DNA of 30,447 nt, taken from UHGV virus genome UHGV-0176192; one strand, 5' to 3'. This DNA comes from a virus. Positions within the stretch are counted from its first letter, which is position 1; every line of letters begins with the position of its first letter. The notes under the pieces were generated by a model, which saw only the letters and a list, made by a program, of their open reading frames with translations, made no database searches and was not told where the DNA came from. The translations under genes and the position numbers were made by a program. Positions 2,189-25,090 of this stretch are shown here, in pieces.

Positions 2189-2525
2189 AAGGAAACAAAA
2201 CAGAAACAACAATTGCCGTTATCTGTTGTTACCATGGCAAGTAAACGTATCTCAGGCGAGCGCATTGCGCCGTTCTGACGCAGATAAACTAGCCCGGATA
2301 GATGGTGCTGGCAATAAAAAATAGCGTTTTCTTATCGGTGTCGGTAAGATTGCTGCGGGTGCTTGAGGCTGTCTGCCTCGGGCATGCCACTGTAAGGCAG
2401 ACAGAGAAAAGCCCCAGTTAACATTACGCGTCCTGCAAGACGCTTAACATTAATCTGAGGCCAATTTCATGCTAGACACATGTAGGTTAGCCTCTTACGT
2501 GCCGAAAGGCAAGGAGAAGCAGGCT

Positions 2526-2681
2526 ATGAAGCAGCAAAAGGCGATGTTAATCGCCCTGATCGTCATCTGTTTAACCGTCATAGTGACGGCACTGGTAACG
2601 AGGAAAGACCTCTGCGAGGTACGAATCCGAACCGGCCAGACGGAGGTCGCTGTCTTCACAGCTTACGAACCTGAGGAGTAA
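2526..2681 (+). CDS. hokD: Hok/Gef family type I toxin (51 aa), closest by recollection to HokD/RelF
   Basis: Translation MKQQKAMLIALIVICLTVIVTALVTRKDLCEVRIRTGQTEVAVFTAYEPEE: single TM helix plus the conserved RKxLCE(V/I)R...EVAxFxAYE signature of Hok/Gef toxins. aaggag at 2511-2516. An in-frame upstream ATG at 2469 also exists. Confidence 0.85.
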   Translation: MKQQKAMLIALIVICLTVIVTALVTRKDLCEVRIRTGQTEVAVFTAYEPEE

Positions 2682-20529: not shown

Positions 20530-20539
20530 GGAGGTGGTA

Positions 20540-21283
20540 ATGACCACACCAAATCCACTGGCAAAGACGAAAGGTGCGGGGACGACGTTCTGGATGTATA
20601 CCGGCAACGGCGATGCGTTTGCGAACCCTTTGTCGGACACTGACTGGCTGCGTCTTGCGATGGTGAAGGATCTGCAACCTGGCGAAATGACCGCTGATGC
20701 AGAAGATGACACTTATCTCGATGATGAAAATGCTGACTGGAAAACGACAACTCAGGGGCAAAAATCTGTTGGTGATACATCCGCGACGCTGGCCTGGCGT
20801 CCGGGTGACAGCGGACAGAAAAAACTGGTTCAGTTGTTCGACTCCGGTGAAGTCTGCGCGTTTCGTATCAAATATCCCAACGGCACTGTTGATGTTTTCC
20901 GTGGCTGGCTGAGCTCACTGGGTAAAACCATTGCCTCAAAAGACGTGATGACCCGCACAGTGAAAATCAGCGGTGTGGGGCGTCCGTATCTGGCAGAGGA
21001 AGGCACTGAAACCGTGGGCGTTACCGGGCTGACGGTGGCACCGGCATCTGCCAGTGTAAAAGTGGGAGCAACCACCACGCTGACCTTTACAGTAAAACCT
21101 GACGGAGCCAGTGACAAAGCGATCAGTGTGCATTCGACAGATCCACAGACTGCCACGGTGACCCTGAACGGGCTTGTGGCCACGGTGAAAGGCGTGAAGC
21201 AGGGCAGTGTCAGCATTGTGGGCATGACCGCTGACGGCGATTTTGTGGCAGTGGCTACGGTGGCTGTCAGCGCCGCAGGTTAA
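20540..21283 (+). CDS. major tail protein V-like with C-terminal Ig-like domain
   Basis: ATG at 20540 after aaggagg; 247 aa; C-terminus (...VTGLTVAPASASVKVGATTTLTFTVKPDGASDK...) resembles a Big_2 Ig-like domain, as in lambda V. Confidence 0.85.
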   Translation: MTTPNPLAKTKGAGTTFWMYTGNGDAFANPLSDTDWLRLAMVKDLQPGEMTADAEDDTYLDDENADWKTTTQGQKSVGDTSATLAWRPGDSGQKKLVQLFDSGEVCAFRIKYPNGTVDVFRGWLSSLGKTIASKDVMTRTVKISGVGRPYLAEEGTETVGVTGLTVAPASASVKVGATTTLTFTVKPDGASDKAISVHSTDPQTATVTLNGLVATVKGVKQGSVSIVGMTADGDFVAVATVAVSAAG

Positions 21284-21303: not shown

Positions 21304-21327
21304 GCCCCGGTTATCCGGGGCTTTTTT
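21304..21327 (+). terminator. rho-independent terminator/attenuator between V and G
   Basis: gccccgg-ttat-ccggggc stem-loop followed by tttttt. Confidence 0.65.
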
Positions 21328-21340
21328 GCAGGTGGAGAAC

Positions 21341-21730
21341 ATGATGTTTCTGAAACAGGACACGTTTAATTATGAAAAACAGTCCGTGATGCTCAGTGAG
21401 CTGTCCGGGCTGCAGAGAATTGAATATCTGGCGTTTGTTCAGCAGCGAACGGCAAAGTTTGATGCCGGGGAGGGAGAACTGCCGGAGGCTGAACGACAGA
21501 TTGCTTTTCTGCGGATGGGGATGGATATCAATGCCTGGCTGGTTTCCCGCTCCCTGTGGAATGCGGATCAGTCTAAGGATGTAGAGGCGCTTTGCGCATC
21601 CGTTATTACAACATGGTCGTATGATGCCCTGGGAGCGGGGGCGGAGATGGTTCTGTCGCTGAGCGGTATGGGAACCATTGAGAATGCCGGGGATGATGAG
21701 CATGAGGCGCTGACGCCGGAAAAGTCCTGA
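21341..21730 (+). CDS. tail assembly chaperone G-like
   Basis: Translation MMFLKQDTFNYEKQSVMLSELSGLQRIEYLAF... closely parallels the lambda G N-terminus (MFLKTESFEHNGVTVTLSELSALQRIEHLAL...). Confidence 0.8.
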   Translation: MMFLKQDTFNYEKQSVMLSELSGLQRIEYLAFVQQRTAKFDAGEGELPEAERQIAFLRMGMDINAWLVSRSLWNADQSKDVEALCASVITTWSYDALGAGAEMVLSLSGMGTIENAGDDEHEALTPEKS

Positions 21731-21738
21731 CGCGGGAA

Positions 21739-22068
21739 ATGCAGTTTGTCATGCGGCTTGCCCGGGAGTTCCGGCGGGCAGACTGGCGGCGGATGTTGTC
21801 GGAAATGTCGGCCACTGAGCTTGGTGAGTGGGGCGATTATTTCCGGATGCAGAGCTTCAGTGATGTGTGGATGGATGCGCAGTTTGCCTCGCTGAAGGCA
21901 TTGATCGTGAGAATGGTGTCCGGCAGCAGTGATGCTGCGGTGGCTGATTTCAGCCTTTTACCGGAAGAGAACGGGATACCGGAGCGAACGGACGAAGAAC
22001 TGATGCATCTTGGGGAAGGTATTTCCGGAGGTGTGCGTTATGGACCAGATAGCCAACCTGGTCATTGA
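21739..22068 (+). CDS. tail assembly chaperone T-like (probably expressed as G-T fusion by -1 frameshift)
   Basis: ORF in the -1 frame relative to G and open from 21706, overlapping the last 25 nt of G; A-rich ccggaaaag at 21716-21724 near the G stop. Coordinates give the ATG-initiated ORF only. Confidence 0.6.
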   Translation: MQFVMRLAREFRRADWRRMLSEMSATELGEWGDYFRMQSFSDVWMDAQFASLKALIVRMVSGSSDAAVADFSLLPEENGIPERTDEELMHLGEGISGGVRYGPDSQPGH

Positions 22069-25000
22069 TTTAGGGATTGATGCGGCAGAGTTTAAAAATG
22101 AAATTCCCCGTATCAAAAACCTTCTGAATGGTGCAGCCAGCGATGCAGAACGGTCTTCTGCCCGTATGCAGCGTTTTATGGAGCGTCAGACTCAGGCCGC
22201 CCGGCAGACAACGCAGGCGGCTTCTTCGGCTGCAACAGCCGCATCCGTCCATGCGCAGACGGTGGAGAAGAGCGCACAGGCTCATGAACGCATGGCCAGC
22301 GAGGTGGAGCAAACCCGCCAGCGCATGGAGGCGCTGAGCCAGAAAATGCGCGAGGAACAGGCACAGGCCATGGCTCTGGCGGAGGCTCAGGATAAAGCGG
22401 TTGCCGCGTTTTATCGTCAGATTGACAGTGTGAAACAGGCCAGTGCGGGGCTGCAGGAATTACAGCGTATTCAGCAGCAGATCCGACAGGCCAGAAACAG
22501 TGGCGGGATTGGTCAGCAGGATTATCTGGCGCTGATTTCTGAGGTTACTGCGAAAACCCGTGTTCTTACACAGGCTGAGGAAGAGGCTACCCGACAGAAA
22601 GTGGCGTTTATCCGTCAGCTTAAAGAGCAGGCAACCCGCCAGAATCTTTCTTCTTCTGAGTTGCTTCGTGCTAAGGCTGCCCAGCTGGGGGTAAGCAGTG
22701 CTGCAGAAGTGTATATCCGCAAAATGGAGCAGGCAGGAAAAGCCACGCATTCGCTGGGGCTGAAAAGTGCAGCGGCCCGCCGGGAGATAGGCGTTCTGAT
22801 AGGTGAACTGGCCCGCGGCAATTTAGGGGCGCTGAGGGGATCCGGGATAACGCTGGCTAACCGTGCCGGATGGATAGACACACTGATGTCACCGAAAGGT
22901 ATGATGCTGGGCGGGGTTATTGGCGGTATTGCCGCGGCCGTCTATGGTCTGGGTAAAGCCTGGTATGACGGTCAGAAGGAGGGGGAAGAATTTAACCGCC
23001 AGCTGTCGCTGACGGGGCATTATGCCGGAGTCACTGCCGGGCAGCTGTGGACGCTCAGTCGTGCTATTTCCGGGAATGGTATCACGCAACATGCTGCAGC
23101 CGGTGCGCTGGCTCAGGTGGTGGGGAGTGGTGCATTTCGTGGAAACGATATCGGTATGGTGGCGAGAGCTGCCGCACAGATGGAGCGATCGGTTGGTCAG
23201 TCGGTCAGCGATACTATAAGTCAGTTTAAGCGGCTGAAGGATGATCCTGTAAATGCCGCGAAGGCTCTGGACAATGAGCTGCATTTTCTTACTGCCACTC
23301 AGCTTGAGCAGATACGCGTCCTTGGGGAGCAGGGGCGGTCCAGTGATGCTGCACGGATAGCCATGTCTGCACTGGCAGAGGAAACCGGTCGGCGTACTGC
23401 GGATATTGATAATAATCTTAATGCGCTGGGCAGTACGCTGAAATATCTGTCTGATTTGTGGAGCCGTTTCTGGGACGCGGCCCTGAACATCGGTCGTGAA
23501 GATTCACTGGATGGGCAGATAGCTTCCTTACAGGAAAAAATTCAGCGGGCGAAAAAGTTTTCGTGGACGAATTCATCCACTCAGGTGGAGTACGATCAGC
23601 AGCGTCTTAACGATCTTCAGGAGAAAAAACGCCAGAAGGATTTGCAGGATGCAAAAGAGCAGGCAGAGCGGAATTATCAGGAGCAACAGAAACGCCGTAA
23701 TGCTGAAAATGCTGCACTGAACCGGATGAATGAAACGGAAGCAGCACGACATCAGCGTGAAATTGCGCGTATTAATGCCATGCAGTACGCCGACCAGGCT
23801 GTCAGGGATGCGGCGATACAACGTGAAAATGAACGTTACGAGAAAGCCCTGGCATCCGGTAAGAAAAAAACACGCGAAACCCGTAATGATGAGGCCACCC
23901 GGTTATTGCTGCAGTACAGTCAGCAACAGGCACAGGTGGAAGGGCAGATTGCTGCTGCCAGACAGTCAGCAGGCATTGCCTCTGAAAAGATGACAGAAGC
24001 GCATAAACAGCTTCTGGCTCTGCAGCAGCGCATCAGCGACCTGGACGGGAAAAAACTGACGGCAGATGAAAAGAGTGTGCTGGCCCGTAAAGATGAACTG
24101 ATTCAGGCACTGACGTTGCTGGATGTAAAACAGCAGGAGCTTCAGAAGCAGACGGCACTCAACGAGCTGAAGAAAAAAACAATTCAGCTGACCAGTCAAC
24201 TGGCTGAAGAAGAACGCGCTCAGCGTCAGCAACATGACCTGGATATCGCCACGGTGGGTATGGGCGAACAGCTGCGGCAGCGGTATCAGGTACAACTGAG
24301 TCTTCGCCAGAAATACCAGCAACAGCTGGAGCAGTTGAGGCGGGATAGTGAGCAGAAAGGGACATATAACACGGATGACTACAGAAAGGCCGAGCAGGCG
24401 CTGACGGAGAGCCTGAACCGACAACTGAATGAGAATCGCCGCTACTGGCAACAGCTTGAAGTTGTGCAGGGTAACTGGAAAAACGGTGCCATACGTGCGT
24501 TTCAGAATTTTACGGCAGAAGCGGATAATGCGGCAGGAACTGCTGAACAAATGTTTACATCGGCATTCAGCAGTGCGAGCGACGGGCTGGCGACATTCTG
24601 TACCACTGGCAAACTCAATTTCAAATCCTTCACCTCTTCCCTGCTGTCAGATATGGCAAAAATTATGGCGCAGATGACTATGATGCAGGCGGTAAAGGGC
24701 GTCGGTTCTTTATTTGGCTTTACGGCTAATGCTGATGGCGGTGTTTATCAGTCTGCTGATTTGAGTCGCTACAGTGGCACGGTGGTTAACCGTCCAACAT
24801 TTTTTGCTTTTGCAAAAGGCGCGGGTGTGATGGGGGAAGCTGGGCCTGAAGCCATTCTGCCACTGCGTCGTGGTGCTGACGGTAAGCTGGGGGTTGTGGC
24901 GGATATTGGTGGTTCAGGTATGGCGATGTTTGCCCCGCAGTACAACATCGAGATCAATAACGACGGCACGAACGGGCAGATAGGTCCGGCTGCCCTGAAG

Positions 25001-25090
25001 GTGGTTTATGATCTCGGGAAAAAAGCGGCAGCAGACTTTATGCAACAGCAGTCCCGTGATGGTGGACTGTATTCAGGAGGCGGGCGATGA
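22040..25090 (+). CDS. tail tape measure protein (gpH-like)
   Basis: 1016-aa ORF, ggagg RBS 8 nt upstream of ATG 22040; long coiled-coil-like Q/A/E/R-rich region and Gly-rich C-terminus; in the lambda H position. Confidence 0.9.
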   Translation: MDQIANLVIDLGIDAAEFKNEIPRIKNLLNGAASDAERSSARMQRFMERQTQAARQTTQAASSAATAASVHAQTVEKSAQAHERMASEVEQTRQRMEALSQKMREEQAQAMALAEAQDKAVAAFYRQIDSVKQASAGLQELQRIQQQIRQARNSGGIGQQDYLALISEVTAKTRVLTQAEEEATRQKVAFIRQLKEQATRQNLSSSELLRAKAAQLGVSSAAEVYIRKMEQAGKATHSLGLKSAAARREIGVLIGELARGNLGALRGSGITLANRAGWIDTLMSPKGMMLGGVIGGIAAAVYGLGKAWYDGQKEGEEFNRQLSLTGHYAGVTAGQLWTLSRAISGNGITQHAAAGALAQVVGSGAFRGNDIGMVARAAAQMERSVGQSVSDTISQFKRLKDDPVNAAKALDNELHFLTATQLEQIRVLGEQGRSSDAARIAMSALAEETGRRTADIDNNLNALGSTLKYLSDLWSRFWDAALNIGREDSLDGQIASLQEKIQRAKKFSWTNSSTQVEYDQQRLNDLQEKKRQKDLQDAKEQAERNYQEQQKRRNAENAALNRMNETEAARHQREIARINAMQYADQAVRDAAIQRENERYEKALASGKKKTRETRNDEATRLLLQYSQQQAQVEGQIAAARQSAGIASEKMTEAHKQLLALQQRISDLDGKKLTADEKSVLARKDELIQALTLLDVKQQELQKQTALNELKKKTIQLTSQLAEEERAQRQQHDLDIATVGMGEQLRQRYQVQLSLRQKYQQQLEQLRRDSEQKGTYNTDDYRKAEQALTESLNRQLNENRRYWQQLEVVQGNWKNGAIRAFQNFTAEADNAAGTAEQMFTSAFSSASDGLATFCTTGKLNFKSFTSSLLSDMAKIMAQMTMMQAVKGVGSLFGFTANADGGVYQSADLSRYSGTVVNRPTFFAFAKGAGVMGEAGPEAILPLRRGADGKLGVVADIGGSGMAMFAPQYNIEINNDGTNGQIGPAALKVVYDLGKKAAADFMQQQSRDGGLYSGGGR

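Follow-up and report, generated by a model that had tools for sequence, protein, structure and literature searches.

A probable -1 frameshift site, G GAA AAG, between the tail assembly chaperone gene G and gene T of a lambda-like tail module

In the window, that is, the whole 30,447-nucleotide stretch of virus genome UHGV-0176192 analysed here, genes G and T are predicted to be expressed in part as a G-T fusion, produced by -1 tandem slippage of the ribosome on the heptamer G GAA AAG near the 3' end of G. We assign this reading a probability of about 85%. The geometry of the two genes, their homology, the nucleotide conservation of the heptamer and the coding constraint on the T frame are direct observations, and are presented below together with the rival explanations for the expression of T.

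The G/T overlap and the proposed slip

The 20.5-26 kb portion of the window is a lambda-like tail module with the gene order V, G, T, H, followed by M and L, in which G and T are flanked by V, the tail tube gene, and H, which encodes the tape-measure protein (Table 1). Pfam searches assigned G to PF06894 (Phage_TAC_2; E 8.7e-40, 122 of 126 profile positions covered) and T to PF06223 (Phage_tail_T; E 5.1e-15, full-length profile). G can start at ATG 21344, giving 128 aa, or at ATG 21341, giving 129 aa; the spacing from the Shine-Dalgarno (SD) sequence GGAG (21334-21337) suits ATG 21344 better, and the 128-aa form appears in the RefSeq record of E2348/69 and the 129-aa form in the mEp460 annotation. 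The H protein is 1016-1026 aa long, and its gene, preceded by a strong SD, begins inside T, the two sharing 29 nt. Between V and G lies a GC-rich terminator-like hairpin, at a place where the mEp460 and N15 records annotate a terminator; it may lower the transcription of G, T and H, and may set the ratio of V to G/T/H expression. Outside the tail module, positions 2357-2531 (+) match the Rfam sok antitoxin RNA (RF01794) over its full length with 118.7 bits, suggesting that a toxin-antitoxin system of the hok/sok type is encoded early in the window. At the slip site itself the Rfam scan returned no family match.

Table 1. Features of the G/T region, in window coordinates.
Feature	Position	Strand	Remarks
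V, tube protein	20537-21283		PF16461 and Big_2
Terminator-like hairpin	21304..21327	+	GCCCCGG-TTAT-CCGGGGC followed by T6
G, tail assembly chaperone	21344..21730	+	PF06894; stop TGA 21728-21730
GAGG, weak SD-like element	21705..21708	+	9 nt upstream of the heptamer; -5.6 kcal/mol
G/T overlap	21706..21730	+	25 nt; -1 frame open, 0 frame still coding
Proposed -1 slippery heptamer G GAA AAG	21718..21724	+	sole in-frame A_AAR element of the overlap
T segment, -1 frame, post-slip	21724..22068	+	first codon GTC 21724-21726; stop 22066-22068
ATG, T start in database annotations	21739..21741	+	8 nt after the G stop; T codon 6
H, tape-measure protein, client of G and G-T	22040..25090	+	TMP_2, Tape_meas_lam_C and TMP_4

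The 0 frame of G ends ACG CCG GAA AAG TCC TGA. The -1 frame is closed by stops at 21694, 21697 and 21703 and then stays open from 21706 to 22068. The original prediction had placed T in the -1 frame, open from 21706 and overlapping G by 25 nt, with ccg gaa aag at 21716-21724 and the -1-frame ATG at 21739, and all of these coordinates held on retranslation. The remaining in-frame heptamers of the overlap (GGCGCTG, GCTGACG, GACGCCG, GCCGGAA, AAAGTCC and GTCCTGA) have no re-pairing potential. In the proposed heptamer, bases 1-3 read G G A and not XXX, and thus depart from the P-site half of the canonical X_XXY_YYZ pattern; the A AAG at 21721-21724 conforms to the canonical YYYZ part, with cognate re-pairing from AAG to AAA in the A site. 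The predicted fusion, 21344..21724 joined to 21724..22068, has 241 aa, with ...ALTPEK running into VLTREMQF... at the junction. When it was aligned with the lambda, Gifsy and Fels fusions the junction Lys column was invariant, and G GAA AAG fell at the position of the lambda heptamer G GGA AAG.

The bare string GGAAAAG is not rare in the window (10 copies against 5.0 expected, a number reached in 5 of 100 shuffles), so that the case rests on frame, position and conservation. What exceeds chance is the frame of the heptamer, its location in an overlap of just 25 nt and the lack of any change at the homologous position in relatives with no more than 35-55% identity in G.

That ribosomes slip here, that both tRNAs slip in tandem, how often this happens and that the products act as chaperones are all inferred. 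Most ribosomes would read TCC and then TGA, releasing the 128-aa chaperone G, and a small share of those translating G would slip back one base on the heptamer. Peptidyl-tRNA-Glu would move from GAA to GGA, keeping G:C at position 1 and A:U34 at position 3 and accepting G.U at position 2, and aminoacyl-tRNA-Lys (mnm5s2UUU) would move from AAG to the fully cognate AAA. Reading in the -1 frame from GTC 21724 to 22068 would then yield a G-T fusion of ~27 kDa, which, as in lambda, would bind the tape-measure protein H by its G part and recruit the tube protein V by its T part. The prophage also carries genes for tRNA-Thr(UGU) and tRNA-Gly(UCC) (window 9437-9512 and 9516-9590, +), the latter of which decodes GGA, the codon that the P-site tRNA would face after the -1 slip; the match is probably a coincidence, and the tRNA genes ordinary rare-codon supplementation.

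Re-pairing of tRNA-Lys from AAG to AAA is a hallmark of efficient bacterial -1 sites (PMC4066793). In the dnaX context, the data of Tsuchihashi and Brown tabulated in PMC6787027 (Supplementary Table 3) give 81% for A AAA AAG, 57% for G GGA AAG and 20% each for A GAA AAG and G AAA AAG, with G GAA AAG absent from the tabulated variants. The 20% obtained with A GAA AAG implies that a P-site tRNA-Glu on GAA is tolerated even with a mispair at position 1; G GAA AAG, in which that pair is restored, should therefore shift at least as well. In E. coli the A_AAG tetramer without a stimulator gave 0.15% against a background of 0.11% (PMC4066793), which suggests that P-site re-pairing probably matters and, taken together with the lack of a conserved stimulator at the G/T site (see below), that efficiency could be low. 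By analogy with lambda we estimate a slip rate in the low single-digit percent at most, probably in the range of or below the ~4% of the lambda G-T frameshift (PMC3296357).

Distribution and conservation of the heptamer

The occurrence of the site was surveyed by scanning viral contigs (three scans) and species-representative genomes (one scan) and by adding single phage records, retaining loci where T lies in the -1 frame relative to G and the overlap holds an A_AAR element in frame. The census comprises 301 loci encoding 181 distinct G-T proteins, which fall into 31 clusters at 80% G-T identity. The -1 relation was found in 301 of 305 loci, the four exceptions having indels or internal stops. 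Two damaged loci, IMGVR_UViG_2869970738_000006 (L306), where a deletion of ~30 nt takes out an A AAA AAG site together with the G stop, and IMGVR_UViG_2734481909_000001 (L205), where the G tail contains an indel, probably come from defective prophages or reflect errors of assembly. Another group (L127-L139 and L146-L149, genome_contigs) has a G/T region 100% identical to that of lambda on short contigs of ~1x coverage, labelled Neobacillus, Oceanobacillus, Kitasatospora, Shewanella, Pseudomonas, Leeuwenhoekiella, Paenibacillus and others, and most likely represents contamination of those assemblies with lambda DNA.

Heptamers are distributed among the 31 clusters as GGAAAAG (23), GGGAAAG (3), AAAAAAG (2), GGCAAAA (2) and GGGAAAA (1), and no cluster, at either 80% or 90% identity, contains more than one of them. 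GGAAAAG, invariant in 205 loci, is the majority state of the family and the lambda heptamer G GGA AAG a minority one, confined to the clusters of lambda itself, of a lambda-like Stx2a/E. albertii type and of Edwardsiella. AAAAAAG belongs to VT1-Sakai and Stx1 phages, GGCAAAA to Kluyvera and Ewingella, and GGGAAAA to Providencia. Carriers of GGAAAAG include the plaque-forming phages mEp460 and Ayreon as well as phi80, N15, Gifsy-1, Gifsy-2, Fels-1, mEp043 and a Klebsiella phage, and prophages of Citrobacter, Kluyvera, Kosakonia, Enterobacter, Providencia, Sodalis, Symbiopectobacterium and other hosts. That the window carries a decayed lambda site in a dead prophage was considered and rejected, given the presence of the heptamer in isolated phages and in 23 of the 31 lineages. 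The original prediction of a lambda-like G-T shift on the A-rich GAAAAG is supported by the alignment with lambda, by the single A_AAR element of the overlap, by the 23 clusters sharing the heptamer and by the constraint on the T frame. It overstated how unusual the site is: the same heptamer is annotated in N15 and predominates in the family.

The G/T segment of the window is 97.5-98.6% identical to that of isolated phages including mEp460, cdtI, Ayreon, Tritos, HannyBb and phi458, and occurs in 1845 of 5426 complete E. coli genomes (~1/3). In E. coli E2348/69 (L156, NC_011601 1072810-1075865) the tape-measure gene beside an identical G/T allele is flagged as a frameshifted pseudogene, so decayed prophages account for at least part of the 1845 E. 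coli copies. The records of mEp460, Ayreon and E2348/69 (RefSeq) list G and T as separate genes, with T beginning at a non-conserved ATG and no mention of ribosomal slippage; the G-T fusion is consequently missing from protein sets built on them. In the Gifsy-1 and Gifsy-2 records the T homologues are described as frameshift products. These two Salmonella prophages and Fels-1 share ~68-70% DNA identity with G/T of the window and have G C-terminal tails unrelated in sequence to that of the window, and all four nevertheless end G with CCG GAA AAG YCC TGA.

Conservation was profiled over the 31 cluster representatives anchored on the heptamer. The mean majority-base fraction was 0.94 within the heptamer, 0.52 in the 30 nt upstream and 0.75 in the 45 nt of T-coding sequence downstream, and heptamer positions 4-6 did not vary in any of the 31 clusters. 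The preceding codon is variously CCG, GCG, CTG, TTG, ACG or GTG (Pro, Ala, Leu, Thr, Val) and ends in G throughout, except that in the Stx-phage type TCA precedes AAA AAG. Base 1 of the heptamer is in every cluster identical to the first base of the P-site codon, as simultaneous slippage would need in order to keep P-site tRNA pairing at position 1. The sequence of the G protein does not explain this match, and neither does the T frame, which is not yet read at that point. Lys is encoded by AAG in all 205 GGAAAAG loci, compared with 24% of E. coli Lys codons. These sequence patterns support selection on the heptamer at the nucleotide level.

A pre-shift motif, E-x-x-[T/S]-x-[E/G/K]-K, is conserved within the otherwise variable C-terminal tail of G. 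In the 31 representatives it appears as GA at -14/-13 (96% and 93% conserved; window 21704-21705), part of a Glu codon four codons upstream, and as C at -4 (87%; window 21714), in a Thr/Ser codon. Protein constraint, part of an SD-like element and a nascent-peptide effect are all possible readings. A more speculative view, on balance unlikely but worth stating, is that G GAA AAG prevails as the shift site of the family, may even be ancestral to it, and engages two mnm5s2U34 tRNAs (P-site Glu and A-site Lys), so that the G:G-T ratio and hence tail assembly of these very common prophages would hang on host 2-thiolation (Tus/MnmA), with the nearly invariant upstream E-x-x-[T/S]-x-E-K perhaps acting as a nascent-peptide or mRNA modulator. 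If true, the dependence on thiolation through both tRNAs would exceed that shown for lambda through tRNA-Lys alone.

Alternative routes to T and candidate stimulators

Most database annotations begin T at ATG 21739, and mEp460, cdtI and the RefSeq PGAP annotation give a separate T CDS from that codon; on this reading a fusion would be unneeded. However, just 2 of the 31 clusters have an ATG at the equivalent position, where the rest have CTG, CGN or CTT, and Gifsy-1, Gifsy-2, Fels-1, lambda, phi80 and N15 are all without it; the next ATG, at T codon 10, occurs in 12 of 31. The SD of ATG 21739 is weak and abuts the start codon (anti-SD pairing of -4.3 kcal/mol with no spacer, compared with -6.4 for G and -10.8 kcal/mol for H). 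Moreover, coding constraint in the T frame begins directly after the heptamer, upstream of this ATG, with a -1-frame codon periodicity of 0.77/0.85/0.63 for codon positions 1/2/3, and T codons 1, 2 and 5, all upstream of it, are conserved as V/A/I, L/F and Glu (Glu in 28 of 31 clusters). Without exception the open T frame extends back into G, with an overlap of 16-79 nt across the 31 clusters, and T of lambda is made only as G-T (PMC5009743). ATG 21739 is probably not the physiological start of T, and its independent use in place of a fusion is very improbable.

A slip of tRNA-Lys alone on A_AAG, with the preceding GG playing no part in P-site re-pairing, is a more credible competitor, although still a rather unlikely one. 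Among tetramers, A_AAG is the one on which E. coli ribosomes slip most (PMC4066793), non-canonical NNA_AAG sites are used in nature (PMC5009743), and two lineages have G GCA AAA, where a P-site tRNA-Ala cannot re-pair; the poor P-site re-pairing in these lineages indicates that full tandem re-pairing is not obligatory in the family. In five clusters, moreover, the Lys codon abuts a stop codon, an arrangement that would favour slippage in the P site while termination is slow. Yet tetramers need a strong stimulator, and none is conserved at the G/T site. Nor does a single-tRNA slip explain why base 1 is G after six different codons and A where the P-site codon is AAA, a fit to tandem slippage in 31 of 31 clusters. 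The lineages with TAG immediately after the site carry G GCA AAA, G GGA AAA or G GAA AAG variants (L095 from Kluyvera, L097 from Ewingella, and L125, L111 and L141 (Providencia)); TAG follows directly in all three AAA-ending heptamers, which suggests that slow termination promotes the slip in TAG-adjacent lineages.

Slippage of RNA polymerase on the A run, deleting one A from the mRNA, could in principle also generate the fusion, but its probability is close to negligible. For polymerase slippage to be productive, a run generally has to be ~7 or more bases long, and the run here has only four A. The conserved final G (AAG and not AAA) and the GG prefix likewise suit tRNA re-pairing and not polymerase slippage. 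The evidence on its side is the homopolymeric A4 run itself and the existence of some bacterial and phage genes in which transcriptional slippage yields frameshifted products (PMC5009743). Tandem ribosomal slippage on G GAA AAG is the best-supported reading.

Elements that could stimulate this slip were sought on both sides of the heptamer. A downstream stimulatory structure, contemplated in the original prediction, did not emerge: folding of the window sequence downstream of the site was no better than that of shuffles (z -0.82 for 106 nt, z +0.76 for 60 nt), and RNAalifold on 27 representatives gave 0 consensus pairs downstream of the heptamer, so that no structure was either significant in the window or conserved. 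A GCCAG...CUGGC helix of 5-6 bp, starting 5-6 nt after the heptamer, occurs in phi80 (L157), N15 (L163) and Enterobacter/Kluyvera-type relatives (the carriers also including L107, L108, L100, L096, L120, L140 and L142; columns 12-17 with 40-45 of alignment A2). Its spacing is right for a frameshift stimulator; only 69% of cells are paired overall, and the helix is disrupted in the lineages of the window, Gifsy and lambda. Upstream, GAGG (Table 1) is a possible minor stimulator. Mean anti-SD pairing over the 27 representatives was ~-3 kcal/mol at spacings of 7-10 compared with ~-1 elsewhere, a signal confounded by GA-rich acidic codons, and the element is missing in many lineages including lambda.

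Comparison with known frameshift systems

The G/G-T frameshift of lambda at G GGA AAG was reportedly established by Levin, Hendrix and Casjens in 1993 and by Xu, Hendrix and Duda in 2004 and 2013. Lambda resembles the window in having homologous proteins (35% identity over G-T), the V-G-T-H order and, as predicted for the window, a -1 shift with an A-site slip of tRNA-Lys(mnm5s2UUU) on A_AAG, and both are without a strong stimulatory structure. They differ by one base in the P-site codon, GGA (Gly) in lambda, preceded by GCG, and GAA (Glu) in the window, which places tRNA-Glu in the P site. Each would have one non-Watson-Crick pair after the slip, at the middle position (G.U) in the window and at the wobble position in lambda. 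The overlap is 25 nt in the window and 64 nt in lambda.

E. coli dnaX shares with the window a tandem -1 slip, predicted in our case, with tRNA-Lys on an A-site AAG and, if GAGG is counted, an SD-like element ~10 nt upstream. It has a strong SD and a stem-loop and reaches ~80% shifting (Tsuchihashi and Brown 1992), whereas in the window GAGG stands alone, without significant structure, and the product is a truncation in dnaX and an extension in the window. Like the window, the G_CGA_AAG site of IS1222 and the A_CGA_AAG site of B. subtilis cdd (PMC5009743) depart from X_XXY_YYZ, and in them the slip on A_AAG is essential; their P-site codons cannot re-pair, whereas G GAA AAG can re-pair at all three positions if G.U is allowed. 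IS elements also rely on downstream structures, while the window family is without a conserved one. Motifs of the type NNA AAG are said to have been tested by Licznar et al. in 2003. The PRFect study lists 'twofour' among non-canonical backward motifs, a class that GGAAAA would fit by motif name, and discusses G.U pairing of tRNA-Glu with GGA. A literature search combining the string GGAAAAG with 'frameshift' matched only unrelated primer and mutation papers. The G-T frameshift is conserved among tailed phages (PMC5009743). Pipelines limited to X_XXY_YYZ would overlook the commonest shift site of this family.

N15 provides the closest precedent. For its genes 14/15 the RefSeq record (NC_001901) carries a misc_feature at 10027..10033, 'slippery sequence for -1 translational frameshift', which reads GGAAAAG. 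As in the window, the genes are homologues of lambda G/T in the -1 geometry, with the identical heptamer at the homologous position. The two differ in context: in N15 the heptamer is preceded by GCG, followed by five more 0-frame codons before the G stop and backed by the GCCAG...CUGGC hairpin 5-6 nt downstream, whereas in the window it is preceded by CCG and separated from TGA by a single codon (TCC), in a lineage without the hairpin. The overlap and heptamer observed in the window are real and were correctly interpreted, and with the N15 annotation the proposed shift site is already known both in kind and in sequence.
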